A stretch of DNA of 64,000 nt. Origin: an uncultured Gemmatimonadota bacterium. GTDB taxonomy: Bacteria > JAAXHH01. The first letter of the stretch is position 1. Each line of letters opens with the position of its first letter. Shown here piece after piece: positions 8,860-52,768 of this stretch. The DNA lies in the NCBI GenBank assembly GCA_951812955.1, contig OX638340.1:3648001-3712000 (forward strand). Direction: 5' to 3'. Both the position numbers and the translations under genes were made by a program. The notes under the pieces are model-generated. The model was not told the origin of the DNA. It saw only the letters and a program-made list of their open reading frames with translations, and searched no databases.

Positions 8860-9711
8860 ATGCGACTGACGGAACAGCAACATGCGTTTGTGGATACCTT
8901 CGGCTACCTCGGTTTTCCTGGGTTATTGAAAGACCGGATCGACGAGATCATCGACGCCTTCGAGTCCGTGTGGACCGAGCGCGGCGGCGGGCACGACGGA
9001 AGGCCCCACGACGGTACGGCGCGGTCCTGCATCGTGCCCTTCATCGATCAGCATCCGGTGCTGTCCTCGCTCATAGACGATCCTCGGGTCAACGGCATCT
9101 TCAGCAGCCTCCTGGGCGATGATTTCGTCTACCTGGGCAGCGACGGCAATTTCTACGTCAGCGATACCAACTGGCATTCCGACACGGACTGGTCGGGCAA
9201 GATGCGTGGCAAGCCGCCCCGCATCTACTTCAAGATGGCCTTCTATCTCGATCCCCTGACGCGGGATTCGGGTGCGCTTCGGGTGATTCCGGGCAGCCAC
9301 CGGTACGGCGACGCCTATGCCGAAGCGCTGGAAACCCGGATCAGGAAGTCGGGGGAAAACTGGGGCGTCGAGGGCTGGGAGGTGCCCGCGGTGGCGCTCG
9401 AGACGCAACCGGGCGACGTCGTCGTATTCAACCAGAACACCAAGCACAGCGCCTGGGGAGGAAGCGACCGGCGCAGGATGTTCACGATCAATTGTACGGC
9501 GCGTTTCGCCGAGAAGGATATGCAACTACTGAAGAACGAGATCGCCGCGGGCGCCCGGTTCTGGCTCGACAGCGTCTACGGCGAAGCCATGCTGGAGACG
9601 GCCGGTCCGGCGCGCATGAAGCACCTGGAGCAGCCCCTGGCCCACCAGGACCACCTGGCGGAGGAAGTGCGGAAGGCTAAACTGCGGATGGCGGAGCCGT
9701 CGAGGGGTTAA
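8860..9711 (+). CDS. Phytanoyl-CoA dioxygenase (PhyH) family Fe(II)/2OG-dependent oxygenase
   Basis: WHSD..W, ALRVIPGSHR and a later H in ..KHSAWGG..RR: the His-x-Asp...His facial triad plus the Arg. The start at 8860 (MRLTEQQHAFVDTFGYLGFPGLL) aligns with the paralog at 21932-22720 (MFQLESHQKEFMDTFGYLHFPGLL). Confidence 0.8.
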   Translation: MRLTEQQHAFVDTFGYLGFPGLLKDRIDEIIDAFESVWTERGGGHDGRPHDGTARSCIVPFIDQHPVLSSLIDDPRVNGIFSSLLGDDFVYLGSDGNFYVSDTNWHSDTDWSGKMRGKPPRIYFKMAFYLDPLTRDSGALRVIPGSHRYGDAYAEALETRIRKSGENWGVEGWEVPAVALETQPGDVVVFNQNTKHSAWGGSDRRRMFTINCTARFAEKDMQLLKNEIAAGARFWLDSVYGEAMLETAGPARMKHLEQPLAHQDHLAEEVRKAKLRMAEPSRG

Positions 9712-10712
9712 CGCCAGGTCTGACGGGCGCGGACTTCGGAGAGGAACCGCTTCGCGTTGCCTGAGAAATGGTCCTCGATCTCCCGCGCGGTCAGACCCAG
9801 CATGTCCGCCACCTGTTTTTCCTGCCTGAGCTGCTCGTAGATGACCAGCGTCGCCCTGGAATCGCAGTGGGGCGTCGTTTCCGTCGTGCCCTCGTAGTAG
9901 GTCCACGCACGCCCGTAGGTCACGTACTTGCCGCGTGCGCATCCCGCCACAACGTTGTCCGAGCCAAACATGACGCGCGAGCGGTCCTCGTGTTTCATCA
10001 GCAGGTATTGGGTGTACAGGTCGTTCACGGCCGAGGTGTCGTACCAGATATTGGGCAGGCCGGTCAGGAACTGGATCGCCCGCTCCATCATGAAGCAGTT
10101 GAAGGCCCTTGCGCAGTGGGCAAGGATCCACTGGGCGCGGGGATACCGCTTCGTGTAATCTGCGAGGTCCCGCTGGTTGTCGGGGTCCGCCGGTCCTTCG
10201 GGCTTGGACATGTGCATCGTGATGGCAAGCCCCATGTCGTGGGCCACCTCGATGAAGGATTCGGGCAGAAAATCGCGGATGCGGCAGTAGGTGGGATCCG
10301 GGGCGAAGGTCCGGTACGGCTTCAGGCCCAGGAAGCCGTGTCTTTTTACCTGCGCGGCCACGTATTCCGGCGTCATGTCGGGCGTGACCATCATGTTGAT
10401 CCCCGATACGGGATCCTGCTTCATCTCCTCGGCCATCCAGTCGTTATGCCCTTCCGTGTCGATCCCCCCCGGGATCGGTGTACCGAGGACCAGGTAGTGC
10501 ATCTCGCGGCCGGGATACATTTTATTCGCCCAGTCCAGGTGGTCCTGGTAGTCGATTTCAAGGCGGAGCCCGGAGGGGTCCGGGTCCAGTCTTCCCCTGT
10601 GCCGCTCAGACCACATGTGGACGTGCATGTCGTAGACGGTGTCCGGTACGTAATCGGCCAGTTCTTCGTCCCATATGCCCCGATCGAATTCCTGGTAGTC
10701 CGGCGCTCGCAT
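9708..10712 (-). CDS. Amidohydrolase-2 family (TIM-barrel metal-dependent hydrolase/decarboxylase, ACMSD-like)
   Basis: DMHVHMW metal-binding start and collinear Amidohydro_2 blocks (..HMSKPEG.., ..FGSD..). I trimmed the start to the ATG at 10712, which has GAGGAGA immediately upstream. Confidence 0.75.
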   Translation of the reverse strand: MRAPDYQEFDRGIWDEELADYVPDTVYDMHVHMWSERHRGRLDPDPSGLRLEIDYQDHLDWANKMYPGREMHYLVLGTPIPGGIDTEGHNDWMAEEMKQDPVSGINMMVTPDMTPEYVAAQVKRHGFLGLKPYRTFAPDPTYCRIRDFLPESFIEVAHDMGLAITMHMSKPEGPADPDNQRDLADYTKRYPRAQWILAHCARAFNCFMMERAIQFLTGLPNIWYDTSAVNDLYTQYLLMKHEDRSRVMFGSDNVVAGCARGKYVTYGRAWTYYEGTTETTPHCDSRATLVIYEQLRQEKQVADMLGLTAREIEDHFSGNAKRFLSEVRARQTWR

Positions 10713-10936
10713 GTTGTCTCCTCGAGTTTTGGTCGGATCGCGCGGATTTACGCTTCTCGGGCACAACGTCCGGTATGCTTTGTGTGAACCCGAGCCATAC
10801 ATTAGTGGAACACCCATTTTAGTAGAAGTGGGCCGGAGTTTCAAGGCAAAAGAGTCTTTGACAACACCTCGTCCCGTCCACTTATTGCCCACGAGATCAA
10901 CTCCCTTAAATACCGCCATCTACGTTGGAGGCTATC

Positions 10937-12097
10937 ATGGCTGAAACACACGAAATGGACCGGCGGAATTTCCTGCGTAACACCGTCCTGGGCGGCGCGG
11001 GTGTTTCGCTGATCGGCACGCCGGTATGGGAAGCCGCGGCCCAAATGGTCAACGAACCCCAGATGCCGGCAGTAAACGGTGTCGGACTCGATGATCCCCT
11101 GCTGGTCCAGCTCAGCATCAATGAGAATCCCCTCGGCGCTTCGCACCGCGCCATCGAGGCGGTCGCGAGCAAGATGTTCGGCATGAACCGGTATACCATG
11201 CACAACGAGCTCGAGGAAGCCCTCGCCGACTTTCACGGCGTCGATCCCGAGTCGGTCTTCATGGGCGTCGGTTCATCGGAAATCCTGTTGACGGCGACGC
11301 TGGCGGCCTTCTGGGATCAGCCAGGCAATACGGTGACGGCCTTTCCATCCTATCGTTCCATACCGAGGACGACCGAGGAACTCGGACAGGCGGTCAAGAA
11401 AGTGCCCCTGACCGGAGACTGGCAGATGGACCTGTCCGCCATGGCTGCGGCGGTCGATGACCAGACCCGGATCGTCAGTATCTGCAATCCCAACAACCCA
11501 ACGGGCCAGATACTCGATGCCTCGGCGCTGGAGCAGACGATCAGGGCGATGCCGAAGGACGTAATCGTCTGCGTCGACGAAGCCTATATTCAGTTCGTGG
11601 ACGATCCGGACTACCCGTCGATGATTCCGTTGACGAAGGACGTCGAGAACCTGCTGATCTCCCGCACGTTCTCTAAGGCGTATGGACTGGGTGGCATGCG
11701 TGTCGGTTATGGCGTCGCGCACCCGTCGCTGTTGGAGAAAATGCAGCGGTTCAGCATCGGAATGCTCAACAAGAACACCCTATCGACCGTTGCGGCCCTC
11801 GCCGCGCTGGGAGACCAGGAGCACGTGAGGCGTTCGGCAGCGCTTGCACGGGAAGGCAAAGCGTATCTCTACGAAGAGCTCGAAGGCATGGGATACAGCC
11901 CCTTGCGCACGCAGACCATCTTCGTCACCGTCGAGGTCGGCCCCAACGTGCAGACTCTCATAGATCGCCTCTGGGAGAAGAAGGTCCAGGTCCGTCAGGC
12001 TTTCGACATGGAAGGCTTCATGCGGATTTCAGTCGGCCTGCCCCGGGAGAACGAAGCCTTTATCTCCGCCTTCAAGCGGGAACGCAGCGCGTTGTAG
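10937..12097 (+). CDS. Class I/II PLP aminotransferase (histidinol-phosphate/aromatic aminotransferase-like) with twin-arginine (Tat) signal peptide
   Basis: DRRNFLRNTVLGGAGVSLIG..AAAQ is a Tat motif. HisC-like blocks follow (NENPLG, NPNNPTG, and SKAYGLGGMRVGY containing the PLP-lysine). The ATG at 10937 has GGAGG 7 nt upstream. Confidence 0.75.
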   Translation: MAETHEMDRRNFLRNTVLGGAGVSLIGTPVWEAAAQMVNEPQMPAVNGVGLDDPLLVQLSINENPLGASHRAIEAVASKMFGMNRYTMHNELEEALADFHGVDPESVFMGVGSSEILLTATLAAFWDQPGNTVTAFPSYRSIPRTTEELGQAVKKVPLTGDWQMDLSAMAAAVDDQTRIVSICNPNNPTGQILDASALEQTIRAMPKDVIVCVDEAYIQFVDDPDYPSMIPLTKDVENLLISRTFSKAYGLGGMRVGYGVAHPSLLEKMQRFSIGMLNKNTLSTVAALAALGDQEHVRRSAALAREGKAYLYEELEGMGYSPLRTQTIFVTVEVGPNVQTLIDRLWEKKVQVRQAFDMEGFMRISVGLPRENEAFISAFKRERSAL

Positions 12098-12165: not shown

Positions 12166-12930
12166 ATGAATTACCCGAACACGCTCAAGCGGCGCATCCG
12201 CGACGGCGAACTGCTGCTGGGTACGGTCCTGACCGCCCATAATTCGTTTGACGCCTCGGTGGTCTGCGGTTCGGATATCGACTTCCTCTGGATCGATACC
12301 GAGCACTCCGCGAGTGCCGTAGAAGACCTGGGCATGGTGCCGGTGATCGCCCGCCAGCGGGACGTGGCGCCCATGATCCGGATCGCGTGGAATGATCCCG
12401 CCTTGATCAAGAAGGCCTACGATATCGGTGCCGTGGCGGTCATGATCCCCCAGGTCAACACGGCCGAGGAGGCGGAGCACGCGGTTCGGCACGCCCGGTA
12501 CGCTCCCGAAGGACAGCGCGGGATTTCCCCCTACTGGGCGATGATGGCGGGACTGGACTTCAAGCACGTAGTTAAAACGGCCAACGCGGAGACCGTCACC
12601 GTGCTGCAGATCGAAAGCGTCGAAGCCCTGGATAACCTGGACGAAATCAAGCAGGTGGAAGGAATCGACGTCCTCTTTCTCGGTCCCACGGACCTGTCCG
12701 CGACGATGGGCGTGATCGCTGAGACCGAATCACCCGAGGTACAGGGCGCTATGCGCGAGTTTCCCGGCCGGCTGGAAGGTTCCGGGATCATGGCGGGGAC
12801 GACGCTGGCCGATTTGCAGGATATCCAGCAGAAAATTGAATGGGGTTACCGATTCATCAACGTGGGCAGCCCCATGGGTTACGGTATGCAGGTGCTGAAG
12901 GACAACCTGGATGCGCTGCGGAGTGGATGA
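12166..12930 (+). CDS. HpcH/HpaI-family 2-keto-3-deoxy-acid aldolase
   Basis: 254 aa, collinear with HpaI/RhmA-type class II aldolases (..LWIDTEHS.., ..VMIPQVNTAEEA.., ..QIES..). Confidence 0.85.
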   Translation: MNYPNTLKRRIRDGELLLGTVLTAHNSFDASVVCGSDIDFLWIDTEHSASAVEDLGMVPVIARQRDVAPMIRIAWNDPALIKKAYDIGAVAVMIPQVNTAEEAEHAVRHARYAPEGQRGISPYWAMMAGLDFKHVVKTANAETVTVLQIESVEALDNLDEIKQVEGIDVLFLGPTDLSATMGVIAETESPEVQGAMREFPGRLEGSGIMAGTTLADLQDIQQKIEWGYRFINVGSPMGYGMQVLKDNLDALRSG

Positions 12931-12934: not shown

Positions 12935-13741
12935 ATGATCAACGAAGAACAGGTCCGGAAATTCCAGGAAATGGGATGGCTGGTGGTGGAGGGCGTCTAC
13001 ACCCACGAGGAAGCCGACGAGGTGGCGCGACTGGCACTGCAGACGGCGGATTCCATGGATGTAGAGGAATCCATGGCCGGCTATCTGCTGGACCGTTCCG
13101 AATCGGGAGAATCCGCGCCCCGGAAGATCGACAGTCCCTACCTGCGGAATCCGCTATTTCGCGATTTTGCCCTGGATGGCAGGCTTCGGGAGATACTCCG
13201 GCGAATCACCGGCGAAGAACCCCTGCTCAAGAGCGACCAGCTTTTCATGAAACCGCCGCGGTTCGGATCGGAGAAACCTTACCACCACGACAATTTCTAC
13301 TTCCGTTGCACGCCGGGCGGCCACGTGATCACGGCCTGGATCGCCCTCGACGACGTGGACGAGGAGAACGGCTGCCTTCGATACATCTCCGGTTCGCACA
13401 AGAAGGGGATCATCGAGCACGTGGAGGTCCCCGGCCAGCCCTACAACCTGGCTCCTCCGGACGACTTGATCGATTGGGAGAACGAGGCCTCAGCGCCGGT
13501 GCGCAAGGGCGGCGTGGTCTTCCACCACTCGGAGACCCTCCACTCGTCGCGTCGCAATACGTCAGATCGATGGCGGCGCGGCTACGCGACGCATTGGGTT
13601 ACCGCTGCGGTGACCAGCGAGACCGACAACCTGGACGGCGCATATTTTCAAAGCGACGAGTACGCGGAGTACGTGCGGGCCGTGGACCGGACGAAGGATG
13701 ACGCGGCGCAAGTTGGTACCGCCGATTCGGGAGGGGCCTGA
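12935..13741 (+). CDS. PhyH family Fe(II)/2OG-dependent oxygenase
   Basis: HHDNFYF and WIALDDVDEENGCLRYISGSHK motifs. The ATG at 12935 lies just after the aldolase stop. Confidence 0.8.
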   Translation: MINEEQVRKFQEMGWLVVEGVYTHEEADEVARLALQTADSMDVEESMAGYLLDRSESGESAPRKIDSPYLRNPLFRDFALDGRLREILRRITGEEPLLKSDQLFMKPPRFGSEKPYHHDNFYFRCTPGGHVITAWIALDDVDEENGCLRYISGSHKKGIIEHVEVPGQPYNLAPPDDLIDWENEASAPVRKGGVVFHHSETLHSSRRNTSDRWRRGYATHWVTAAVTSETDNLDGAYFQSDEYAEYVRAVDRTKDDAAQVGTADSGGA

Positions 13742-13779
13742 CTTTGACGACGGCAACGGTGGCCGGAACTATCACCGAT

Positions 13780-14427
13780 CTCATGTGGTCGGAGACGGCT
13801 TCGATCTACGACGCGATCCTCGCGCACCCTTTTATCAAGGGACTAACCTCCGGGGATCTCGACCGGTCTGCTTTCGAGTTCTACACCGTGCAGGACGCGC
13901 TCTACCTGAAGGACTACGCCCGGGCCCTGAGCCTTGCCGCCGTGAAAGCGCCGGATGAGGAGACCATCATCCTCTTCAACGAGCATTCGAAGGGCTGTCT
14001 CGTGGAAGAGCGGGCCATGCAGAAGAACTTCTTCGACGTCTTCGGCCTTTCGGCGGAACAGGTGTGGGCGACGCCCAAGGCACCCGCTTGCCAGGCCTAT
14101 ACGAGCTACCTGCTATCGGTAGCCTACGCCCGGCCCTTCCACGAGGTCGTGGCCGTGGTGCTTCCCTGTTACTGGATCTACTGGGAGGTGGGCAAGGCGC
14201 TGGCCGAGAAGGGATCGCCCGATCCCATGTACCAGCAGTGGATCGACACCTACGCAGGCGAGGAGTTCGCCGAGGCCGTCGTGGCCGTCCTCGAAATCAC
14301 GAACCGGGTCGCACGGGGACTTCCGGATGTGGATCGAGCAGCCATGCTACATCATTACGTCACGACCAGCCGGTACGAGTGGATGTTCTGGGACATGGGG
14401 TATCGGAAGGAAGCCTGGCCGGTGTGA
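13780..14427 (+). CDS. TenA/PqqC-like (heme-oxygenase-like fold; thiaminase II / aminopyrimidine aminohydrolase family)
   Basis: Collinear with B. subtilis TenA (..HPFIKGL..G.L, YTVQDALYLKDYAR, LPCYWIYWEVGK, YEWMFWDMGYRKE). The start is taken at the ATG at 13780; a TTG at 13744 is also possible. Confidence 0.75.
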   Translation, partial: LMWSETASIYDAILAHPFIKGLTSGDLDRSAFEFYTVQDALYLKDYARALSLAAVKAPDEETIILFNEHSKGCLVEERAMQKNFFDVFGLSAEQVWATPKAPACQAYTSYLLSVAYARPFHEVVAVVLPCYWIYWEVGKALAEKGSPDPMYQQWIDTYAGEEFAEAVVAVLEITNRVARGLPDVDRAAMLHHYVTTSRYEWMFWDMGYRKEAWPV

Positions 14428-15375: not shown

Positions 15376-16209
15376 ATGCCCATTACCGACGCCCTGCCCG
15401 ATATGAAGCGGGAACTTCGTTTTTTTCCGGCAAGATCCGAAAATCCGAAAGCGCTTTCCCGTGAACAGATCGACTTCTTCAACACGAACGGGTATCTGTG
15501 CCCCCTCGATGTATTTACGCCGCGGGAAGCCGAAGCGAACCGCCTGTATTTCGAGGACCTGATGGCCCGTGCAGAGAAGGAAGGGTACAACAGCTACTCC
15601 ATCAACGGCTGGCATCGGCATTGCGAGGGCATCTACAACCTGGCCATGAACGAGAGGATTCTGGACTACGCGGAGGACCTGGTCGGCGAGACGTTGATCT
15701 GCGAGATGACCCACTATTTCTGCAAGATGCCGGGCGACGTGCAGCGGGTGAGCTGGCACCAGGACGCCTCCTACTGGCCTCTGACCCCGAGCAAAGTGGT
15801 GACGATCTGGCTGGCCATAGACGACGTGGACGGGGAAAACGGACCCATGACGGTCATCCCCGGTTCACACCTTCACGGACAAATCCCCTTCGAGAACAGC
15901 ACGAAAGCCGAACGCAACGTGCTGGGACAGTCCGTCCACGACCCGCTCAGGTGGGGTGGCGATCCCGTGCCCTTTACCATGAAGGCGGGCCAGATCTCCA
16001 TGCACACCGACCTGCTGCTGCACGGTTCCGAGCCGAATGTTTCCGACCGCCGCCGCTGCGGACTGACGATACGGTATCTGCCGCCGGACGTCCGGGGCCG
16101 CTACCCGGAATACCACAGGGCCATCATCTGCCGAGGCAGCGATCCCTCGGGTTATTGGAGACCCATACCCCGCCCGACGGGCGACCAGATTCCTCCACGC
16201 AATCGCTAG
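15376..16209 (+). CDS. PhyH family Fe(II)/2OG-dependent oxygenase
   Basis: WHQDASYWPL and IWLAIDDVDGENGPMTVIPGSH motifs. Confidence 0.8.
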   Translation: MPITDALPDMKRELRFFPARSENPKALSREQIDFFNTNGYLCPLDVFTPREAEANRLYFEDLMARAEKEGYNSYSINGWHRHCEGIYNLAMNERILDYAEDLVGETLICEMTHYFCKMPGDVQRVSWHQDASYWPLTPSKVVTIWLAIDDVDGENGPMTVIPGSHLHGQIPFENSTKAERNVLGQSVHDPLRWGGDPVPFTMKAGQISMHTDLLLHGSEPNVSDRRRCGLTIRYLPPDVRGRYPEYHRAIICRGSDPSGYWRPIPRPTGDQIPPRNR

Positions 16210-20946: not shown

Positions 20947-21900
20947 TTACCCGTACATCCGGATCGGGGTGGGCTCGGTGGGACGGTTCTTTCGGGGCGG
21001 ACGCTGCGTAGTGACCTTCAGCGCCTCCTCCCAGCCCCGGCTCCACGTGTTGTAGTCCGCTAGCACGAATTCGGGATGGCGCTGGCTGCGGACGATGAAG
21101 TTGGGGTAGAAGGATCGTCCCGTGGGCAGGCCGGTCTGCTGATACCGCAGGTCGAGACTCCACCGGATCGATCCCGATCGGTTGGGGATGGACCGGTGCG
21201 GGATCAGCTTGTGCATGAGCAGCACGTCGCCCTTCTTCATCGGCAAAGACAGGACCTTGCCTTCGGGCAACCCGCTTTCTTCGATGCCGAATCCTTCGCT
21301 CCAGTATACGGTGCCGCGGTGGTGTACGCGGGGGATGATCTGCAGGCATCCGTTCTCTTCGTCGGTATCGCACAGGGGCAGCCAGACGGTGAGAATAAAG
21401 ACCGGATCGGCGTCTTCTTGGTGCACCTGCGCGTCCTGGTGCCAGGGCGCCACATTTTCTTTGACACGCGCAGCCAGGGCGTTCTCGTCGCCGCTGCCGT
21501 TGCCGCCACTATCGCCACTGGCCACGGCCTCCGGCAACTTCGCCCGCAGATGCTGTATGGGGCTGCACGTGATTTCGGGTCCGACGAGAGACCCCACCAG
21601 GTTCAGCATCCGGTCGTTACCGAGAAATCGGAATACCGCTTCGGCACGCATGTGCATGATGTCGATATCGTCATAGATCGAGGGGTTTTCCCGGGTGATC
21701 AGGGCCAGCCGTCGCTCGAAGGGTTCTCCCTCGTGAAGTTCGGTAATTCGTCCTTCTTCATGGAGACTGCGCGCCCGTCCGTCCACGAACGCTTCGATCC
21801 CGGCGATGACGGGATCCAGATCATCACCGGTGAGCGCTCCCTTTACGATGACGTATCCTTCATCTACAAAATGCTGAAACTGATCCTGTGTGAGTGCCAT
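20947..21900 (-). CDS. PhyH family Fe(II)/2OG-dependent oxygenase
   Basis: WHQD.. and LTVWLPLCDTDEENGCLQIIPRVHHRG motifs. Confidence 0.8.
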   Translation of the reverse strand: MALTQDQFQHFVDEGYVIVKGALTGDDLDPVIAGIEAFVDGRARSLHEEGRITELHEGEPFERRLALITRENPSIYDDIDIMHMRAEAVFRFLGNDRMLNLVGSLVGPEITCSPIQHLRAKLPEAVASGDSGGNGSGDENALAARVKENVAPWHQDAQVHQEDADPVFILTVWLPLCDTDEENGCLQIIPRVHHRGTVYWSEGFGIEESGLPEGKVLSLPMKKGDVLLMHKLIPHRSIPNRSGSIRWSLDLRYQQTGLPTGRSFYPNFIVRSQRHPEFVLADYNTWSRGWEEALKVTTQRPPRKNRPTEPTPIRMYG

Positions 21901-21931: not shown

Positions 21932-22720
21932 TCAAGCCGCTTTCGGGATGTGAGAGATCAAGTTCTGCAGGTGCCGTAGTCGTTCGGGCGTGGCCGTGGA
22001 AACCAGGGGGCCGTTCTCCCTGCCAAAAACTTCCCGCGTCGTATAGCCGTGTTGACGGATGATCTTCTTGTACGCCTCGAGCGCAGGGCCTTCCGTATGA
22101 TGACCTGTAAATACGATCGTGAACATGCGCCGCCTTGTCCCCCCGCCCCACGCGCTGTGCTTGGTGGAATGATTGAACACGGCCAGGTCGCCGGGTTGGG
22201 TCTCGACGGCGACTGCGGGAACCTCGCTGCCGTGGAGCCCACCCCACCCTCCCTTCCTGCCCGTAAGGTGTTCGTGGACCGATTCCGCGTAGCCTTCGCC
22301 GAACCGGTGGCTACCCGGGATGACCCGGAGCGCTCCCGTGTCCCTCGTCATGGGATCCAGGTAGATCGCCATCTTGAAGAACCGGATCGGTTCGGGCCAC
22401 TGGGTGTCGGAGTGCCATCGCGTGTCGCCCACATACAGATTGCCGTCGCTGTTCCAGTACTGGTATTGATCGCCCAGCAGGCCGGCTGCGATGCCGTGTA
22501 TGCGGGGATCGTCCAGCAGCGTGCACAGGTAGGGATCATGGTTGATAAACGGCACGATGGCCAGCCGCTCCACGCCTGCGTGGTCGTCGCTCCCGTTTTT
22601 TTTCAGCAGCCCATCGAAAGCCGCTGCTATTTCATCGATCCTGTCGTTGAGCAGACCGGGAAAGTGTAGATACCCGAAGGTATCCATGAATTCCTTCTGG
22701 TGTGATTCAAGTTGAAACAT
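21932..22720 (-). CDS. PhyH family Fe(II)/2OG-dependent oxygenase (close paralog of 8860-9711)
   Basis: Collinear with the ORF at 8860-9711 (WHSDTQW, ALRVIPGSHRFGEGYAE, NHSTKHSAWGGG.RRRMFT). Confidence 0.8.
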   Translation of the reverse strand: MFQLESHQKEFMDTFGYLHFPGLLNDRIDEIAAAFDGLLKKNGSDDHAGVERLAIVPFINHDPYLCTLLDDPRIHGIAAGLLGDQYQYWNSDGNLYVGDTRWHSDTQWPEPIRFFKMAIYLDPMTRDTGALRVIPGSHRFGEGYAESVHEHLTGRKGGWGGLHGSEVPAVAVETQPGDLAVFNHSTKHSAWGGGTRRRMFTIVFTGHHTEGPALEAYKKIIRQHGYTTREVFGRENGPLVSTATPERLRHLQNLISHIPKAA

Positions 22721-24020: not shown

Positions 24021-24089
24021 TCTCAGGTGGACATCGCGGCAAGCCGCCTGCATGCGTCTGTCTCAGGTGGACATCGCGGCAAGCCGCCG
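24021..24089. repeat. 29-bp direct repeat x2 (GTCTCAGGTGGACATCGCGGCAAGCCGCC) with period 40 at the 3' end of the CPT-like gene
   Basis: The copies sit at 24021-24049 and 24061-24089. The second copy encodes the C-terminus ..RRLAAMST* of the minus-strand gene, and the first lies just beyond the stop. Confidence 0.8.
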
Positions 24090-35128: not shown

Positions 35129-35167
35129 CCCGGTGATTCGGATCTACAATAATTGGATACCAGTTCT

Positions 35168-38965: not shown

Positions 38966-38983
38966 GGAGGGTGTTTCCGAGAA

Positions 38984-40087: not shown

Positions 40088-40139
40088 TTTCGCTCCCTGT
40101 AACAACCTGAATCGACCTCTTGAATTATACGCGAGTCAC

Positions 40140-43462: not shown

Positions 43463-43620
43463 GTGCGATGAACCGTATACGCGTCATGATGAACGATATA
43501 GGCGTCATGATGAACGATATAGGCGTCATGATGAACGATATAGGCGTCATGATGAACGATATAGGCGTCATGATGAACGATATAGGCGTCATGATGAACG
43601 ATATAGGCGTCATGCGATCC
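43463..43620. repeat. Perfect 21-bp tandem repeat (GCGTCATGATGAACGATATAG x6, plus degenerate flanking copies) between arsC and acr3
   Basis: Six identical units at 43481-43606, a degenerate copy upstream, and a partial copy that overlaps the arsC stop codon. The nearest edge of the array is ~45 bp upstream of the acr3 ATG. Confidence 0.95.
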
Positions 43621-44263
43621 CGACCCGCTTGAACAGCCAACCCATCTCCCGACTGATCTCCCGGCATCGTTCGTCGTATATGTCAGTCTCCCGGTCCGTT
43701 CCGTCGGAGGACCTCGGATCTTTGTAGGGAATGAGTATACGTTTGTCGGCGCCGTATACCGCGGGACAGTTGCGGTCCGCGTCCGAACAGGTCAGGACCG
43801 CGCAGAAACGGTCCGGGGGGTTCGCGGGATCCAGGAAAGTCTTGGAGAACGCGCGCACCGGGGAAAGTTCTGCCCCGGGATGGACGAGGTAGACCGGGTT
43901 TTCTCCTGTCGAGTTTCGTTCGATCCGAAAACCCGCCCGGACCAGCGCCGATACGGCCCTCGGATCGAAAGCGGAGACTTCGGTGCCGCCCGAGAAGGCG
44001 GATATCATCGGTACGCCGAGAAAGCGCGCCATGGTCTGTGCCCAGATCTGCGCAATCTGACTCCTGCGGGAATTGTGGGTACAGATAAAGGTGAGCCGGG
44101 CCGGTTCGCCGCTTCCGATCTTCGCCGAGGCGTATGCAGCAACGGATTCCAGCTCCTTCCTTCGTTCTGTAGAGATCAGGCTGGATTCCGCCATGCGGGC
44201 CTTGAGATAGCGATGGAGGGCCGGGTACAAGGTGGTACAGGTATCGTGAGGGGGCGGTCTCAT
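43610..44263 (-). CDS. arsC: LMW-PTP-family thioredoxin-coupled arsenate reductase (ArsC) with variant P-loop and N-terminal extension
   Basis: The P-loop is CTHNSRRS (CX5R retained; canonical CTGNSCRS). The Cys82/Cys89-equivalent pair LTCSDADRNCP matches B. subtilis TLCGDAADKCP. The ATG at 44263 overlaps the arsR stop by an ATGA. Confidence 0.7.
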   Translation of the reverse strand: MRPPPHDTCTTLYPALHRYLKARMAESSLISTERRKELESVAAYASAKIGSGEPARLTFICTHNSRRSQIAQIWAQTMARFLGVPMISAFSGGTEVSAFDPRAVSALVRAGFRIERNSTGENPVYLVHPGAELSPVRAFSKTFLDPANPPDRFCAVLTCSDADRNCPAVYGADKRILIPYKDPRSSDGTDRETDIYDERCREISREMGWLFKRVGIA

Positions 44264-44754: not shown

Positions 44755-44876
44755 TTTGTCAAGGGAAATGAAGCGATCGGTAATCGCCGGTATCGGTGGA
44801 CACCCGGCAACGCATGTTGTATATTAAGGAAGTCATTTGCGGGATCAACTCGATGTACGCTACACCCTGGAGAATC

Positions 44877-46349
44877 ATGCCGTCCCGTCCCCATGTCCTT
44901 CTCGTCTGTACCGATCACTGGCCGGGCAGGCTGTTCGGCCACGCGGGTCATCCGGTGGTCCAGACTCCGACCCTGGATACCCTCGCGCGCAGCGGTGTCC
45001 GGTATACCCGGGCCTACAGCGAATGTCCGGTGTGCATTCCCGCGCGAAGGACGCTCATGACCGGCACGACCACGGCCACACACGGCGACCGGGTGTTCAA
45101 GGTCGATGACCCCATGCCTCGGGTCCCGACCCTGGCACAGACCTTTCGGGACAACGGCTACCAGGCCTACGCGGTTGGCAAACTGCACGTGTACCCGCAG
45201 CGGGACCGGATCGGGTTCGACGACGTGGTCCTGGCGGAGGAAGGCCGTCCGAATATCGGCGCCCTGGACGATTACGAGGCCTTTCTCGGGGAAAGCGGAT
45301 ACGCCGGGGAGGGATTCACGCACGGCATGAGCAACAACGAGTACGGCCAACGTCCCTGGCACTTGCCCGAGGCCATGCACGTGACCAACTGGAACACGCG
45401 CCAGATGGCCCGTATGATACGCCGGCGCGATCCCACCCGGCCGGGGTTCTGGTACCTGTCCTACTGCCATCCCCATCCCCCGCTGACTCCGCTACAATGC
45501 TACCTGGACCTCTACCGCGACGAGCACCCAGGTGAGCCGTACTGCGGCGACTGGGCACGGGACCCCGACAGCCTGCCATATGCGCTGAAGGCGGTCCAGG
45601 GAAGATTCGGGGGCATGAGTGATGCCCAGGTCGCCTGGGCAAGACGGGCATTCTACGCCCTGTGCACCCATATAGACCACCAGCTGCGCGTGGTGATCGG
45701 CACGTTGCGGGAGGAAGGCCTGATAGACGACACGATCGTGCTCTTCACGGCCGACCACGGCGACATGCTGGGCGTCCACGGACTGTGGGCAAAGCGGCTT
45801 TACTACGAGCAATCCGCCAACGTGCCCATGATACTCGTGGCCCCGGCCGGCGACGACCGGGTCGGACACAACCGCGCGGACGGACGGCTCGTAGGCTGGC
45901 AGGACGTAATGCCCACGCTGCTGGACCTCGCGGGGCTCGATGTCCCGGATACGGTCGATGGCCTCTCCATGGCGGGCGAAGAGAAACGGGAATACCTGTA
46001 CGGAGAGTGCGGCGAAAACGCCCAGGCCACCCGCATGATGCATGACGGCCGGTACAAGCTGATCTATTACCCGGTGGGCAACCGTACACAGATGTTCGAC
46101 CTCGAGGAAGACCCGGACGAATGCCGCGATCTGTCCGAGTCGAACGACCACGCCCCAATCCTGCGCCGGCTTACGAAGCGGCTGGTGGATGAGATGGCCG
46201 ACCTGGATCCGGCGTGGTTCCGGGACGGACAACTGACCGGCCTGCCGGACCGCGAATACACGCTGCCGCCCAACCGGGGCCTGTCCGGCCAGCGGGGACT
46301 GCACTGGCCGCCGCCACCCATGGATCCGGGGTCGTCCTACGTCCCCTGA
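44877..46349 (+). CDS. Formylglycine-dependent sulfatase (arylsulfatase/choline-sulfatase family)
   Basis: LLVCTDHW at the N-terminus and C-x-P-x-R in SECPVCIPARRTLMTG, followed by ..LFTADHGDMLG... The ATG at 44877 has GGAGA 5 nt upstream. Confidence 0.85.
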   Translation: MPSRPHVLLVCTDHWPGRLFGHAGHPVVQTPTLDTLARSGVRYTRAYSECPVCIPARRTLMTGTTTATHGDRVFKVDDPMPRVPTLAQTFRDNGYQAYAVGKLHVYPQRDRIGFDDVVLAEEGRPNIGALDDYEAFLGESGYAGEGFTHGMSNNEYGQRPWHLPEAMHVTNWNTRQMARMIRRRDPTRPGFWYLSYCHPHPPLTPLQCYLDLYRDEHPGEPYCGDWARDPDSLPYALKAVQGRFGGMSDAQVAWARRAFYALCTHIDHQLRVVIGTLREEGLIDDTIVLFTADHGDMLGVHGLWAKRLYYEQSANVPMILVAPAGDDRVGHNRADGRLVGWQDVMPTLLDLAGLDVPDTVDGLSMAGEEKREYLYGECGENAQATRMMHDGRYKLIYYPVGNRTQMFDLEEDPDECRDLSESNDHAPILRRLTKRLVDEMADLDPAWFRDGQLTGLPDREYTLPPNRGLSGQRGLHWPPPPMDPGSSYVP

Positions 46350-46370: not shown

Positions 46371-47165
46371 ATGCGCGTTTTACGAATTCTTATGGCGTCG
46401 ATCGTCCTGTTATGCGGGACCCTGCCGGTTGCGGCATGGGGGCCGAACGGTCACCGCATCGTGGGCCAGATCGCCGAGAACCACCTGACGGACGCGGCCC
46501 GCAGGGGCATCACCGAACTCGTCGGCCGCGCCTCGCTGGCTCAGATCAGTACCTGGGCCGACGAGATCAAGTCCGATCCCGCCTGGCGCCACGCCTCGCC
46601 GTGGCACTACATCAACGTGCCGCCCGGCCAGACGCTTGAAGAGGTGCGCAGAAACCCGCGCGGCGACGTGGTCGAGGCCATCGAACGGTTCGAACGGATC
46701 TTGAGGGACCGCGATGCGGGCAGGAAAGAACGGGTGGACGCGTTGAGATTCCTGGTCCACCTGGTGGGCGACATCCACCAGCCGCTCCACGCCGGATATG
46801 GCAGCGACCGCGGCGGCAACGATATCCGGGTCCGATGGTTCGGCGAGAGCACCGACCTCCACACGGTCTGGGACGAACACCTCGTAGAGTACCAGCGTCT
46901 GAGCTTCACGGAATGGGTCCGATTCTTCGGGCATGCGCAGCCCGGTGAGATCAACGCATGGCGCCGGTCCACCGTAGTGGACTGGATGCGTGAGTCGAGG
47001 AGCATGCTACCGGCCGTGTACGATTACGGCGGATCCCGTTCCGCCAAAACGCCCTACCTGGGCTACGCCTACATCTTCAAACACAACGATGGCTTAAAAA
47101 TGAGGCTGCTGCAGGCCGGCATCCGGCTGAGCGGCCTGCTGAACGACATATTCGCCTCGCCCTGA
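46371..47165 (+). CDS. S1/P1-family zinc-dependent nuclease, secreted
   Basis: Signal peptide, then the mature N-terminal WGPNGHRIV. GDIHQPLH and further His/Asp Zn ligands follow. Confidence 0.8.
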   Translation: MRVLRILMASIVLLCGTLPVAAWGPNGHRIVGQIAENHLTDAARRGITELVGRASLAQISTWADEIKSDPAWRHASPWHYINVPPGQTLEEVRRNPRGDVVEAIERFERILRDRDAGRKERVDALRFLVHLVGDIHQPLHAGYGSDRGGNDIRVRWFGESTDLHTVWDEHLVEYQRLSFTEWVRFFGHAQPGEINAWRRSTVVDWMRESRSMLPAVYDYGGSRSAKTPYLGYAYIFKHNDGLKMRLLQAGIRLSGLLNDIFASP

Positions 47166-48808: not shown

Positions 48809-49729
48809 CTACATCATGCGCTTGATGATCCGGTCGGACTGACCCGGGGTGATCCCCAGTTCCCGCCCTGCCATGGAGCCGCCCTCGTCCAGTACAGGCT
48901 CCCGGTCCCCCAGCGTGGGCGTATCCGGCTTCTGAAAGAACAGGCCGGTGTAGATTTCGTCCCCCCAGATCAAGGCTTTTTCGCAGGCCGCCTTCCAGTC
49001 GCCTGGATCATGGCCTTCGTCCTCCAGCTTCTTGACACGCTGCTTGAAGAAGGGGTAGTCGTTGTCCTTGTTGAAGGTAACGCAGGGGCTGAATACGTCG
49101 ATCAGCGCAAAGCCCCTGTGCCGGACGGCCTGTTCGATCAGACCGGTCAGGTGGCGGGCGTCGCCGCTGAAGGCCCGTGCCACGAATGTCGCGCCGTTCA
49201 TGATGGCCGCCGTGATGGGATTGATCGGCGATTCCACGCTGCCGAAGGGTGTGCTCTTGGTCTTCATTTCGATACTGCTGGTTGGCGAGACCTGGCCGGT
49301 GGTCAAACCGTAGATCTGGTTGTCCATGACGATGTAGGTCAGGTCGACATTGCGCCGGGCCGTATGCGTGAAGTGGTTTCCGCCAATCCCATAACCGTCG
49401 CCGTCTCCGCCCGTGACGAACACGGTAAGCTCGTGGTTCGCCATCTGTGCTCCCGTGGCCACGGCCAGGGCACGGCCGTGCAGCGTATGCATTCCATACG
49501 AGTTGAAGAAACCCGGGAAATTGGAGGAACAGCCGATCCCGCTGATCGTGAGAATCTCGTGGGGCCGGAGTCCGAGGTTTACGCAGGCCCGCTGCAGACT
49601 GCTCAGCACGCCGAAATCGCCGCAACCGGGACACCAGTCCGGATCCACCTTGCCCTTGAAGTCCTTCGCCTTCAACGGTGTCGCCGGTTTTTCTTCCACT
49701 GCTTCGCGTGGTACAGTTTCCACTGACAT
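48809..49729 (-). CDS. korB: 2-oxoacid:ferredoxin oxidoreductase beta subunit (TPP-binding, KorB-type)
   Basis: CPGCGDFG and TPP-binding GDGDGYGIGGNH blocks. Confidence 0.85.
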   Translation of the reverse strand: MSVETVPREAVEEKPATPLKAKDFKGKVDPDWCPGCGDFGVLSSLQRACVNLGLRPHEILTISGIGCSSNFPGFFNSYGMHTLHGRALAVATGAQMANHELTVFVTGGDGDGYGIGGNHFTHTARRNVDLTYIVMDNQIYGLTTGQVSPTSSIEMKTKSTPFGSVESPINPITAAIMNGATFVARAFSGDARHLTGLIEQAVRHRGFALIDVFSPCVTFNKDNDYPFFKQRVKKLEDEGHDPGDWKAACEKALIWGDEIYTGLFFQKPDTPTLGDREPVLDEGGSMAGRELGITPGQSDRIIKRMM

Positions 49730-49741
49730 GTTGGGAACTCC

Positions 49742-51622
49742 TTAGACGATGACTTCCTGATAGGGCACGAATATGTCCGTCTGACCGGCCAGCAGTTCCT
49801 TGACGCCGTCCACGATATGATGGGGCATGAACGGTTCGCCGTCGTACTTCCGGATGTGTCCTTCGGCCGTCAACCCGGTCTCGCCGCGCAGATAGCGATG
49901 GAACTGGCCGGAATGGTTGTTTTCCACGATCACCGTGCGCTTCGCGCTGGCAAACACTTCCGCTATGGCCTCCGCATGAAGCGGGACGATCCACTTGACC
50001 GGCAGATGGTTTACGGCGATGCCGTCACGGTTGAGAATTTCCACCGCTTCCCTGATCACGCCGTGGGTCGAACCCCAGCCGATGAGCGTGATTTCGGCGT
50101 CGGCGGCATCGGCGCCTGAAAGCGTGGGCGGTTCAATGCGCCTCGCGACATCCTTGAACTTGCGGGCCCGCTTTTCCACCATCTTGCGTCGCTTGTGGGG
50201 ATTGGTGAACTCATCGCTGACCAGGACACCGTCTTCATCGTGCTCGTCCGTGGCCACAACGTGGGCATATCCCTCCACGCCCGGGAGCGCGCGGGGAGAA
50301 ATGCCGCTATCGGTGTTTTCGTACCGCAGGTAACCGTTGCTCGGTGCGCCGATGAGCCCGTGCCCGTTGGCCTCCTGCGATCCCGTTGGTATGTCGCTCA
50401 CGCCGTTCCTGGATTCGGTGATCAGTTCGCCCCGGTCAATTTCAGGCTGCATATCGATGGCCTCTGGGTCGACGCTGAAGGTGCCTTCGGAGATCAGCAG
50501 ATCCGAGATCACGATGCCCGGGCACTGGAAGTGGTCCACCAGGTTAAACAGTTCGGGCATCGTATTGAAGGCGTCAAGCGCATCGGTCGGCGCCACGATG
50601 AAGCGCTCGAAATCTCCCTGGCTCGCGCCCAGAATCTGCCAAAGGTCGCCCTGCTCCGTCTTGGTGGGCACGCCCGTGGACGGTCCGGCGCGCTGCACGT
50701 CGATGAAGACGACCGGTATTTCCAACATCGCCGCGCTGCCCACCGCCTCGGTCATCAGGGCGAATCCGCCGCCCGACGTCGCGCACATGGACCGGCAGCC
50801 CACGTGAGCCGCGCCGATCGCCATGTTGGCCACGCCGATCTCGTCTTCGACCTGACGTACCATGATACCCAGTTCCCGGGCGTTCTGCGCCATCCAGTGG
50901 AGGACGCCGGTGGATGGACTCATGGGATAGGCACAGTAGAACTTGACCCCGGCGGACGCGCCGCCCATGGCCAGCGCATCGTTGCCCGTCCATACCGCCA
51001 GCGGCTTTCCGCCGGAGGGAACGGCAAGATTGAAATGTTCGAAATGCTCTGCGGCGTAGTCGAATCCCGCGCGTGCCACGCCCACGTTCTCGTCGACGAC
51101 TTCCTGGCCCTTGCGCTGAAACTGCATGGTGATGATCTCTTCCAGGATCTGGAAGTCCATGCCGAGCAGGTTGAGGATCGTTCCGAGGGCGACGGTGTTC
51201 TGCACCAGCTTGTTCCGGTTGTTGTCGGTCAGTTCGCCGATGGGAAGCGGACACAGATGCACGCCGTCTCCCGGGCTGCCCGGCGTAATGGTGTCGCCAT
51301 TGTATATGACCCGCGTGCCGGGACCCATGAGCCCCAGGTGCCGGTCCATCGTATCCTGGTTCAGGCAGACCAGCAGGTCGAGTTTGTCGCCATGGTTATG
51401 AACCGGCCGATCACTGATCCTCATCGTGAGGAAAATATGACCGCCCCGGATGATCGACTGGTAGGCATTGTAGGCGTTGAGATGCAGTCCGCGTCGGATG
51501 AAAATCCGGGCGAGCACGTTGCCCGGCGTGGCGATTCCCTGGCCTGCCGCACCGCCTATGGCAATGGCAAAGTCGAATCTTTCTGAACTCATCGGTTGCT
51601 CCTGTCTGTACATCAAGGACAA
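49742..51622 (-). CDS. korA: 2-oxoacid:ferredoxin oxidoreductase alpha subunit with fused N-terminal gamma domain (KorA-type)
   Basis: 626 aa. N-terminal gamma-domain blocks (..IGGAAGQGI..) are followed by the alpha-subunit core. Located immediately upstream of korB on the same strand. Confidence 0.85.
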   Translation of the reverse strand: MSLMYRQEQPMSSERFDFAIAIGGAAGQGIATPGNVLARIFIRRGLHLNAYNAYQSIIRGGHIFLTMRISDRPVHNHGDKLDLLVCLNQDTMDRHLGLMGPGTRVIYNGDTITPGSPGDGVHLCPLPIGELTDNNRNKLVQNTVALGTILNLLGMDFQILEEIITMQFQRKGQEVVDENVGVARAGFDYAAEHFEHFNLAVPSGGKPLAVWTGNDALAMGGASAGVKFYCAYPMSPSTGVLHWMAQNARELGIMVRQVEDEIGVANMAIGAAHVGCRSMCATSGGGFALMTEAVGSAAMLEIPVVFIDVQRAGPSTGVPTKTEQGDLWQILGASQGDFERFIVAPTDALDAFNTMPELFNLVDHFQCPGIVISDLLISEGTFSVDPEAIDMQPEIDRGELITESRNGVSDIPTGSQEANGHGLIGAPSNGYLRYENTDSGISPRALPGVEGYAHVVATDEHDEDGVLVSDEFTNPHKRRKMVEKRARKFKDVARRIEPPTLSGADAADAEITLIGWGSTHGVIREAVEILNRDGIAVNHLPVKWIVPLHAEAIAEVFASAKRTVIVENNHSGQFHRYLRGETGLTAEGHIRKYDGEPFMPHHIVDGVKELLAGQTDIFVPYQEVIV

Positions 51623-51994
51623 GCTGATCTGCCGACGTACGCACGAGTTGTTATTTAGGTATCACGAACGAATAGCGGGAACCAACAAGATACACACTGC
51701 CCTGTGGAGTGTCAACCATTCCTTATGTTTCTTGGGTACAGGCTGCTCCATGGCCCATCGGGTGCCTGCAGCAGGCCATTTTTTGTCGGCGACAGGTAAC
51801 CAGAAAAAACCTAAGCCGCGCTCATGCCCAGGCGTTATTCTACCTTGACACCGGCAGGAATACACCGCTTTATTTTTGATCGAAATCCACCCGTTCATCC
51901 CGAACGGGACCCTGCGCAAATCGGAGTTCGGCCGCGCCCTGCGCATTGCCTCGAACACGAACAACGCGTAAAACAAGTATATCGGGATAGGAAA

Positions 51995-52768
51995 ATGAAC
52001 GGCGCCGAAATCGTACGTCGGTACGAAGAAGATGGTTACGTCGTCGTGCCCGGGGTCATCGACAGCGAGCTGACCGCCGAGGCGCAGGGACATATCGAGT
52101 GGATGGGAGAGAAACACCCCGATGTCCGCCCCGAACAGTACCATCACCACCTGATCGTGGACGATCCGTTCTGGATACGACTTTGCACCGACCCTCGGCT
52201 CATCGACGTCATCGAACCGTTCCTGGGTCCCGATATCGCGCTCTTCGCGGCGCACTACATCAGCAAGCCGCCCCGGGACGGGCAGCCCGTACTCTGGCAC
52301 CAGGACGGGAACTACTGGCCGCTGGAGCCCATGGAGGTCATCACGATCTGGCTGGCCGTGGACGATTCGAACCCGGAAAACGGATGCATGCGGGTCGTCC
52401 CCGGCAGCCACCGGGACCAGAACCTGTTCAAACACCGTGCTTCGGACGGGGAAAACGTGTTGCGTTCGGAACTCGATCTGAAGGTGGATGAATCCACTGC
52501 GGCGGACGTCGTCGTGCCGGCGGGCGGCGTTTCGCTGCACGATCCCTACCTGATTCACGGCTCTGAGGCCAACCGGTCCGACCGTCGGCGATGCGGGTTG
52601 ACCCTCCGGTATATCCCCACGACCACGCGTATAAAGCGCGAGAACTTCCCGGCCTACCTTTGCCGCGGCAGGGCGGTGGAGGGCATCAACCACTATCCCC
52701 CGCTTCCCCGCTTCCGTGCCGGCGAACACTATCCCTTTAACGGGTGTGACCGGCCGCCGTGGAACTGA
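51995..52768 (+). CDS. PhyH family Fe(II)/2OG-dependent oxygenase
   Basis: WHQDGNYWPL and IWLAVDDSNPENGCMRVVPGSHRD motifs. The ATG at 51995 has AGGAAA upstream. Confidence 0.8.
   Translation: MNGAEIVRRYEEDGYVVVPGVIDSELTAEAQGHIEWMGEKHPDVRPEQYHHHLIVDDPFWIRLCTDPRLIDVIEPFLGPDIALFAAHYISKPPRDGQPVLWHQDGNYWPLEPMEVITIWLAVDDSNPENGCMRVVPGSHRDQNLFKHRASDGENVLRSELDLKVDESTAADVVVPAGGVSLHDPYLIHGSEANRSDRRRCGLTLRYIPTTTRIKRENFPAYLCRGRAVEGINHYPPLPRFRAGEHYPFNGCDRPPWN

Follow-up and report, generated by a model that had tools for sequence, protein, structure and literature searches.

The 64,000-nucleotide stretch of contig OX638340.1 analysed here (the window) carries eight genes of the PhyH family of Fe(II)- and 2-oxoglutarate (2OG)-dependent oxygenases (Pfam PF05721), which are numbered copies 1 to 8 in the order of their positions (Table 1). 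The eight coordinate pairs listed in a preliminary description of this DNA all correspond to intact open reading frames (ORFs) with an ATG start and a stop codon, and the translations score 50–125 bits against PF05721, whose gathering threshold of 22 bits was used as the test for family membership. For copy 2 an alternative upstream start at 12911, yielding 276 residues, is used in some database entries. A hidden Markov model (HMM) built from the eight proteins and run against 531 six-frame ORFs of at least 60 amino acids recovered exactly these eight and no ninth copy. The only secondary Pfam match among them, that of copy 7 to 2OG-FeII_Oxy_3, stays below threshold, so that the placement of all copies in PhyH rather than in another 2OG oxygenase family stands. 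Eight PhyH genes among about 54 genes of the window exceed chance (P=8e-6 at a base rate of 1.9 %; P=5e-3 at 5 %), the 1.9 % being the PhyH gene frequency of Poribacteria (reported as >1.9 %), in 2014 the genomes richest in PhyH, and not that of the source genome itself.

The H-x-D motif and the distal histidine of the metal-binding facial triad are invariant in all eight copies (H106, D108 and H196 in copy 1 numbering). An arginine is found 9–12 residues past the distal histidine in every copy; from knowledge of the family we take it to be the ligand of the 2OG C5-carboxylate. The two sequence blocks that had been described as shared facial-triad motifs are common to the copies in degenerate form only: the literal string WH.D..YW matches copies 3 and 8, and DD.D.ENG.[LM]R.[IV]PGSH matches 0/8. 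Moreover, the histidine of the second block (‘PGSH’) is not a metal ligand and is a glutamine in copy 6, and this block had been wrongly counted as part of the triad. The glutamine is nearly invariant (≥90 %) at this position across 62 members of the copy-6 subfamily. Two copies were modelled with AlphaFold2, copy 6 with a predicted local distance difference test score (pLDDT) of 95.9 and copy 1 with 94.7. All Foldseek matches of both models are 2OG oxygenases, in keeping with the double-stranded β-helix fold. The model of copy 1 shows a long helical C-terminus; Foldseek gave no informative solved neighbour for it, none exceeding a template-modelling (TM) score of 0.6. Judged from the conserved residues, all eight proteins are catalytically intact PhyH-family Fe(II)/2OG oxygenases. 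Copy 4 carries a Gly/Ser-rich insert of about 25–30 residues immediately before the HxD motif, and its close relatives are 303–352 residues long.

Pairwise protein identities among the eight range from 14 to 52 %. As had been noted before, the copies are diverged and copies 1 and 5 (at 8860 and 21932) are the closest pair with ~50 %; copies 3 and 8 (15376 and 51995) follow with 34–43 %, then copy 7 with ~30 % identity to copies 1 and 5. Duplication in the assembly, i.e. recent identical copies, can be excluded because the best DNA match between any two of them is just 69 % over 472 nt. The directly adjacent genes are among the least similar, with 18 % identity between copies 4 and 5 and 14 % between copies 6 and 7. 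A neighbour-joining (NJ) tree was calculated from the eight copies, 41 database relatives and four characterised demethylases. The copies fall into eight separate clades with outside sequences between them. At deeper levels, copies 1, 5 and 7 form clade A and copies 3 and 8 clade B, copies 4 and 6 stand alone, and copy 2 joins the PHYHD1/FJS demethylases at depth only. Both adjacent pairs (4/5 and 6/7) are split between different deep branches, an arrangement not expected of a tandem array. Local duplication followed by divergence, as had been proposed for these pairs, is therefore unsupported.

Relatives from outside the window (52–76 % identity) are much closer to the single copies than the window paralogues are to one another. 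Relatives of copy 1 (65–90 %) carry labels including Chloroflexi TSY, Caldilineaceae and Latescibacteria (65–76 %), a Caldilineaceae-labelled one (71 %) following hydantoinase A/B genes. Those of the copy-3 type (61–73 %) include one Poribacteria-labelled entry at 67 %, which adjoins another PhyH gene, GFO_IDH_MocA and AP_endonuc_2. For copy 4, 99 relatives were found at 50–100 % identity, and copy-6-type relatives (52–70 %) are labelled Caldilineaceae, Handelsmanbacteria, Poribacteria, Zixibacteria and Phycisphaeraceae. The subfamily of copy 7 is narrow: of 1.84 billion representatives, 52 pass E≤1e-30, and the best of them reaches 57 % identity.

The positions of the copies are conserved in sister genomes and loci, designated here by L numbers. 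Copies 2–7 are in place in L081 at 89–98 % identity (97 % for copy 5), copies 1–3 in L082 and L130 at 81–89 %, and copy 8 in L001–L006 at 86–92 %. The ratio of nonsynonymous to synonymous substitution rates (dN/dS) against these orthologues lies between 0.05 and 0.18 for all eight (copy 1, 0.09–0.10; copy 2, 0.12–0.18; copy 3, 0.05–0.08; copy 4, 0.13; copy 5, 0.11; copy 6, 0.14; copy 7, 0.18; copy 8, 0.09–0.14). Each of the eight is an old gene distinct from the others and maintained in its own right, fixed in position in sister species and under purifying selection.

KorA, the neighbour of copy 8, was used as a taxonomic anchor. It is 91–93 % identical to its counterparts in sponge- or coral-associated metagenome-assembled genomes (MAGs) titled Candidatus Latescibacterota and in complete chromosomes of 3.5–4.0 Mb, versus ~70 % for SAR202/Dehalococcoidia homologues. 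The proteins of the window itself are encoded on a 3.8-Mb chromosome (contig of 3,813,436 bp). Contig MKWU01000410 from a metagenome of the sponge Aplysina aerophoba encodes copy 6 at 96 %, and a second sponge metagenome (LXNJ) encodes it at 81 %. Because of the KorA identities and of this near-identical DNA in sponge metagenomes, the source organism appears to be a sponge-associated symbiont and not a pelagic SAR202 cell.

The preliminary description had instead seen an oxygenase paralogue expansion of the kind attributed to marine oligotrophs, SAR202 among them, with local duplication as part of its origin and with recalcitrant or branched substrates as what these oxygenases oxidise. The paralogue expansions of SAR202 reportedly concern other families such as flavin-dependent monooxygenases. 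The window does resemble SAR202 in an enzyme-family expansion tied to diverse organic substrates, none of the copies has an assigned substrate, and KorA homologues at ~70 % do occur in SAR202/Dehalococcoidia MAGs. A PhyH gene and a 2-hydroxyphytanoyl-CoA lyase are noted as present in SAR202, with nothing further on PhyH, so that presence and not expansion is documented there (Landry et al., 2017; PMC5395668). Together with the closer kinship to Latescibacterota-named sponge and coral MAGs, the occurrence of the same DNA in sponge metagenomes, the placement of the adjacent pairs (14–18 % identical) in different deep clades and the fact that the copies predate the split of the sister species, this makes the oligotroph interpretation improbable.

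A closer parallel is offered by the sponge-symbiont phylum Poribacteria, in which PhyH is the most abundant Pfam family, with functions mostly unassigned and 305 sequences falling into 193 clusters at 60 % identity (Kamke et al., 2014; PMC3909097). Habitat (marine sponges including Aplysina aerophoba), Pfam family and the presence of many highly diverged copies are the same, and some of the window subfamilies hold Poribacteria-labelled members at 62–67 % identity. The window differs in its Latescibacterota-named organism, in the syntenic fixation of the copies under purifying selection, in their proportion of 8 in ~54 genes and in the lack of a phnY–phnZ pair. Old, fixed and distinct subfamilies in a sponge-associated bacterium would make this locus a local concentration of the PhyH over-abundance known in sponge symbionts. 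We hold this evolutionary and organismal part of the explanation, i.e. old distinct subfamilies in a sponge-associated lineage, to be very probable. The expansion itself has been known since 2014; what is new here is that the copies represent ancient, syntenically fixed subfamilies, and the association of a KanJ-like subfamily with GFO/IDH/MocA genes described below. A report of PhyH over-abundance in sponge Latescibacterota was not found in the literature searched, which is no proof that none exists.

The genes surrounding the eight copies are listed in Table 1; between 23.9 and 26.3 kb the gene calls were taken from those of L081.

Table 1. PhyH copies and neighbouring genes of the window, with positions, strands and HMM bit scores.
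Feature	Position	Strand	Remarks
FmdA/AmdA-type amidase	7730-8680	-	flanks copy 1
PhyH copy 1	8860-9711	+	283 aa; clade A; apparently monocistronic; PF05721 51 bits
Amidohydro_2 gene	9708-10919	-	flanks copy 1
Class I/II aminotransferase, HisC-like	10925-12097	+	PF00155 177 bits; TIGR01141 hisC 250 bits, below 276 cut-off; first gene of putative copy-2 operon
HpcH/HpaI-type class II aldolase	12166-12930	+	PF03328 112 bits; no NCBIfam equivalog cut-off reached; immediately precedes copy 2
PhyH copy 2	12935-13741	+	268 aa; third gene of putative aminotransferase-aldolase-PhyH-TenA operon; PF05721 125 bits
TenA thiaminase II	13744-14427	+	PF03070 148 bits; TIGR04306 salvage_TenA 166 bits, above 130 cut-off; starts 2 bp past copy 2 stop
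PhyH copy 3	15376-16209	+	277 aa; clade B; apparently monocistronic; PF05721 98.5 bits
PhyH copy 4	20947-21900	-	317 aa; final gene of the run from CPT-like kinase through BNR propeller and copy 5; PF05721 79 bits
PhyH copy 5	21932-22720	-	262 aa; clade A; gaps of 31 bp to copy 4 (downstream) and 67 bp to BNR_2 gene (upstream); PF05721 50 bits
BNR/Asp-box beta-propeller	22788-23867	-	PF13088 BNR_2 64 bits; upstream of copies 5 and 4
CPT-like (chloramphenicol-phosphotransferase-like) P-loop kinase	24066-24605	-	97 % tblastn match to L081 gene with PF07931 CPT; upstream of BNR gene
TMEM164-family multi-pass membrane protein	26313-27092	-	PF14808 151 bits; coordinates from L081; divergent from GH89
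GH89 alpha-N-acetylglucosaminidase-like (NAGLU-like)	27249-30053	+	934 aa; PF12972 NAGLU_C 78.5 bits; PF05089 NAGLU 42 bits; upstream of copies 6, 7
PhyH copy 6	30196-31002	+	268 aa; KanJ-like subfamily; follows GH89 after 142 bp; PF05721 66.5 bits
PhyH copy 7	31045-31839	+	264 aa; clade A; follows copy 6 after 42 bp; PF05721 53 bits
Sulfatase with SGSH_C domain, arylsulfatase-like	44796-46349	+	PF00884 133 bits; PF16347 64 bits; NF010322 409 bits, below 481 cut-off; 13 kb downstream of copy 7
KorB/KorA-type 2-oxoacid:ferredoxin oxidoreductase	48809-51622	-	Pfam POR_N, POR, TPP_enzyme_C, PFO_beta_C; taxonomic anchor; divergent from copy 8
PhyH copy 8	51995-52768	+	257 aa; clade B; apparently monocistronic; PF05721 119 bits
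ThuA + GFO/IDH/MocA fusion oxidoreductase	58574-60238	+	PF06283, PF01408, PF22725, PF02894; local GFO HMM; only GFO-family gene in window

PhyH genes take part in three conserved co-directional runs: copy 2 is preceded by the aminotransferase and the HpcH aldolase and followed by TenA; copies 5 and 4, in this order, come after the CPT-like kinase and the BNR propeller; and copies 6 and 7 come after GH89. More generally, glycosidase-like genes, genes that handle amides or amines and salvage genes often run in the same direction as the PhyH copies. Of the genomic partners named in the preliminary description, the aldolase with TenA and the GH89 gene proved real and conserved, whereas two others are not supported. 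The supposed sialidase is a BNR propeller with the uncharacterised 5hx0 as its best solved match (160 bits, versus ~27 bits for sialidases). For KorAB no partnership with copy 8 is supported: the copy is transcribed away from KorA and converges on a Mur-ligase-like gene; the adjacency is kept in six sister loci (L001–L006) and lost in L007/L008, where KorA is 77 % identical. The GH89–copy 6–copy 7 arrangement is the same in L081, and the GH89 arrangement is also found in L088. Inspection of the N-termini revealed no apparent signal peptide on the GH89 protein, the BNR protein or any PhyH copy. Scans of the window detected no tRNA and, with Rfam, no match of any kind, thus no riboswitch and no thiamine pyrophosphate element near the TenA operon, and promoter and terminator scans returned counts at chance level.

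Two further observations concern these runs. A 456-aa protein (24913-26280, +), flanked on one side by the CPT-like kinase/BNR/PhyH run and on the other by the TMEM164 gene, has no Pfam or NCBIfam match and is 96 % identical in L081. The divergent pairing of TMEM164 with GH89 is kept in sister and sponge-metagenome loci (L081, L088). It is reminiscent of lysosomal heparan sulfate breakdown, in which the membrane acetyltransferase HGSNAT is paired with NAGLU; TMEM164 represents a different family.

The combination of an aminotransferase, an HpcH aldolase, copy 2 and TenA is unusual and is kept in L081, L082 and L130; L130, alone among the sister genomes, has a Fic-domain gene (L130 7716-8834) inserted between TenA and DnaJ. 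Members of the HpcH/HpaI aldolase family cleave 4-hydroxy-2-oxo acids. For copy 2 chiefly, or for more than one copy, a function as oxidative O- or N-demethylase or hydroxylase in the salvage of modified nucleosides or vitamin fragments was considered. Copy 2 finds its best solved match in PHYHD1 (87 bits) and groups deeply with tested demethylases in the NJ tree, and its gene lies 2 bp from that of a bona fide TenA salvage enzyme. PHYHD1/FJS-type PF05721 enzymes, including one from Poribacteria, demethylate 2'-O-methyl nucleosides (Stonkus et al., 2025; PMC12709175), and the activity of the poribacterial member implies that some symbiont PhyH enzymes act on ribose substituents. Copy 2, however, is just 25–30 % identical to the characterised 2'-O-methyl-nucleoside demethylases (45–70 bits), a level at which orthology is doubtful. 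Its genomic company of aldolase, aminotransferase and TenA is also not that of nucleoside-handling genes: no nucleoside hydrolase, phosphorylase or transporter is adjacent, and the aldolase and aminotransferase have no obvious fit to nucleoside salvage. We regard this function as unlikely.

None of the eight copies (0/8) reaches an NCBIfam equivalog cut-off and four, including copy 1, have no NCBIfam match at all, in agreement with the preliminary description, which had assigned no substrates. Apart from copy 2, the nearest solved relatives are 6zyk for copies 3 and 8 (71 and 77 bits), KanJ for copy 6 (45 bits), PtlH for copy 4 (29 bits) and EctD for copy 1 (27 bits). Human PAHX scores 38–61 bits with copies 2, 3 and 8 and is never the top match, which argues against a PAHX orthologue among them. 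The family name, together with these matches and with the same HxD...H triad and 2OG-binding arginine arrangement, might suggest that some copies are true phytanoyl-CoA 2-hydroxylases in the α-oxidation of branched (phytol- or isoprenoid-derived) acyl-CoAs. Since PAHX is never the closest relative, since no 2-hydroxyacyl-CoA lyase, acyl-CoA ligase or β-oxidation gene was present among the window genes scanned, and since the neighbours are glycosidase-like proteins, amidases, aminotransferases and transporters, we consider this highly improbable. Equally remote is a service in phosphonate catabolism (hydroxylation by PhnY, then cleavage by PhnZ) or in ectoine hydroxylation, two functions that had earlier been proposed for PhyH genes of bacteria, although phnY–phnZ pairs occur among poribacterial PhyH genes (Kamke et al., 2014; PMC3909097) and weak NCBIfam matches to the PhnY-GIM8 and EctD models exist. 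These matches amount to 29–38 bits against cut-offs of 336–500, with best scores of ~37 bits for PhnY-GIM8 (NF052437; cut-off 500) and 37.7 bits for EctD (TIGR02408, copy 8; cut-off 336.5), and the scanned genes include neither a PhnZ-type HD-phosphohydrolase nor ectABC.

The nearest solved relatives are mostly biosynthetic enzymes, as are most characterised bacterial and fungal members of the PhyH family, and sponge symbionts are rich in natural products; the copies might hence tailor secondary metabolites in the manner of KanJ, SnoK/N, EvdO, PtlH, FtmOx1 or the halogenases. The search among the window genes yielded no polyketide synthase, nonribosomal peptide synthetase, terpene cyclase or glycosyltransferase, and the hydrolases, transporters and catabolic-type enzymes found next to the copies are conserved across several species. 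The best score with the PtlH model is 34 bits (cut-off 550), and that with the model of SyrB2/CytC3-type chlorinating enzymes (TIGR01762) is 78 bits, obtained with copy 3, against a cut-off of 226. No copy is a halogenase because all eight keep HxD, not HxA/G; the halogenase label given to copy-3-type relatives by the Joint Genome Institute (JGI) was rejected for the same reason. Tailoring is therefore an improbable function of the set.

Copy 6 is the sole window copy that matches KanJ, and it was followed up with profiles and predicted structures. A profile of the 62-sequence copy-6 family finds KanJ at 64 bits (E 9e-17), the next family being FtmOx1 at 32 bits. Copy 6 and KanJ share NxxPGSxxQxxHxD, ENGSxE and HRGxPNxSxxPRP, i.e. 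motifs beyond the triad. With the copy 6 model, Foldseek ranks 1–37 are all KanJ chains (TM 0.73–0.83, E ~1e-17), followed by AndA at TM 0.70. By sequence, by profile and by predicted fold alike, KanJ thus is the specific nearest solved relative of copy 6. In kanamycin biosynthesis KanJ removes the 2'-amine of the glucosamine ring in kanamycin B by 2OG-dependent oxidative deamination, and the 2'-oxo compound so formed is reduced by KanK with NADPH.

The neighbourhoods of copy-6-type genes were examined by a census of 129 ORFs lying within 5 kb of such genes in 24 non-redundant loci, with 547 ORFs from 45 KorA-anchored loci as controls. GFO/IDH/MocA genes were found 9 times among the 129 and 0 times among the 547 (p=3e-7; 8/24 loci), and further PhyH genes 12/129 versus 2/547 (p=1e-7). 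The GFO/IDH/MocA gene lies directly downstream of the copy-6-type gene in L085 and L103 and one ORF further in L083, L092 and L107. The gene orders are PIG-L de-N-acetylase, copy-6-type, PhyH, GFO/IDH/MocA in L083 and L092; BNR_2, sulfatase (SGSH_C), copy-6-type, GFO/IDH/MocA, PhyH in L085; PhyH, copy-6-type, GFO/IDH/MocA, PhyH in L103; and BNR_2, heparinase II/III, sulfatase (SGSH_C), copy-6-type, Amidohydro_2 in L087 (Phycisphaeraceae). In several independent contexts the gene immediately upstream of the copy-6-type gene encodes a protein of a type acting on glucosamine substrates: GH89 in the lineage of the window, PIG-L in L083/L092, and the SGSH_C sulfatase in L085 and L087. The other neighbours are heterogeneous and comprise AP_endonuc_2, 2-hydroxyacid dehydrogenases, short-chain dehydrogenases/reductases and a sugar ATP-binding cassette transporter. 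A conserved two-oxygenase module of copy 6 and copy 7 was rejected, as the partner PhyH genes elsewhere come from various subfamilies; the clusters are hence combinatorial. The genome of L085, a larger one with a 6.35-Mb contig, holds at least three copy-6-type paralogues on that one contig (P0141, P0168, P0183), two of them within 5 kb, indicating that the KanJ-like subfamily has itself expanded elsewhere.

From remote homology and gene neighbourhood comes the most specific and best supported of the functional proposals, that copy 6 may possibly resemble KanJ in oxidising a glucosamine-type sugar at the carbon that bears the amine. It would act on C2 and release NH3 and a 2-keto sugar, and in the related loci the GFO/IDH/MocA-type NAD(P) oxidoreductase could reduce the 2-keto product in the manner of KanK. 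Copy-6-type genes are often followed by a gene for an NAD(P) oxidoreductase, a possible parallel to the KanJ/KanK system. The context, in contrast, looks catabolic (GH89, sulfatase, PIG-L, heparinase, transporters) and is not that of an aminoglycoside gene cluster, and the putative reductase partner is of the GFO/IDH/MocA type. A more speculative and doubtful extension is that the copy-6 subfamily with GFO/IDH/MocA forms a catabolic counterpart of KanJ/KanK, which would remove the free 2-amino group of glucosamine in heparan-like host glycans. The glucosamine residues would be exposed by sulfamidase-type sulfatases, by PIG-L de-N-acetylases or by GH89-linked steps, and the reductase would regenerate a normal sugar.

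Several points weigh against the amino-sugar function. The identity between copy 6 and KanJ is just 22–23 %, and no GFO gene adjoins copy 6 in the window, the sole one being 27 kb away; it is for these reasons that only modest weight is placed on it. The census controls come from other phyla, and if a base rate of 2–3 % is assumed for GFO genes the p value of 3e-7 rises to between 1e-3 and 2e-2. About half of the copy-6-type loci have unrelated or unannotated neighbours, BNR_2 is only marginally enriched (4/129 versus 4/547, p=0.047), and a general link to sulfatases was rejected, with 1/129 versus 3/547 and no enrichment. Any kinship of the GFO/IDH/MocA partner to KanK is hypothetical. On the side of transcription, a sigma-70-like promoter match (10 of 12 positions; 30110-30139, +) lies in the 142 bp that separate GH89 from copy 6, and copies 6 and 7 might accordingly be transcribed apart from GH89; the operons proposed here are deduced from spacing and conservation. 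Some reservations extend to the locus as a whole: no copy reaches a curated equivalog threshold, and all substrates are therefore ones that we infer; the enrichment is one over the poribacterial rate and not over the PhyH count of the source genome; and the phylum label is inconsistent, the genome titles reading Latescibacterota and the non-redundant database names for the same 90 % protein clusters Gemmatimonadota or Gemmatimonadetes bacterium.

With these points taken into account, the locus is probably best explained as a local concentration of eight old PhyH subfamilies in a sponge symbiont, with functions in the oxidation of small molecules. The eight proteins would be soluble, presumably cytoplasmic enzymes of the hydroxylase type, each oxidising, with O2 and 2OG, a C-H bond in a small polar substrate of its own, and the products may feed catabolic or salvage routes encoded alongside. 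The same PhyH phenomenon as in Poribacteria is thereby seen in a second lineage of sponge symbionts, and its copies are maintained as distinct enzymes rather than as duplication noise. For at least one subfamily, the locus makes the decade-old question of PhyH function testable. Were the catabolic counterpart of KanJ/KanK real, it would constitute a previously undescribed route for N-unsubstituted glucosamine and would, for the first time, explain in biochemical terms some of the PhyH expansion seen in sponge symbionts and in marine degraders of the Planctomycetota type. KanJ-like amino-sugar oxidation coupled to these reductases, if confirmed, would add a new step to the bacterial breakdown of animal glycosaminoglycan-type polymers and help to explain how symbionts feed on the host matrix.

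Some further features of the window were observed. Directly downstream of copy 7 and convergent with it (31859-40105, -) lie genes for two very large AcrB-type resistance-nodulation-division (RND) transporters (1089 and 1265 aa) together with an HlyD-type membrane-fusion gene. A 217-aa protein without Pfam match (43610-44263, -), adjoining an ArsR regulator, is 62–68 % identical in sister genomes versus 84–95 % for its neighbours, and a secreted S1/P1 nuclease (46371-47165, +) is 57 % identical in L001 and 79–84 % in the others; the two diverge more quickly than the genes around them. An amino-acid permease with C-terminal PTS_EIIA_2-like and TrkA_C domains (5583-7658, +) occurs in the window and in L130 and is absent from the otherwise collinear L082, which points to an insertion or deletion between sister genomes. 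The fusion of a trehalose-utilisation-like ThuA domain with a full GFO/IDH/MocA oxidoreductase is ~90 % conserved in L001–L005.

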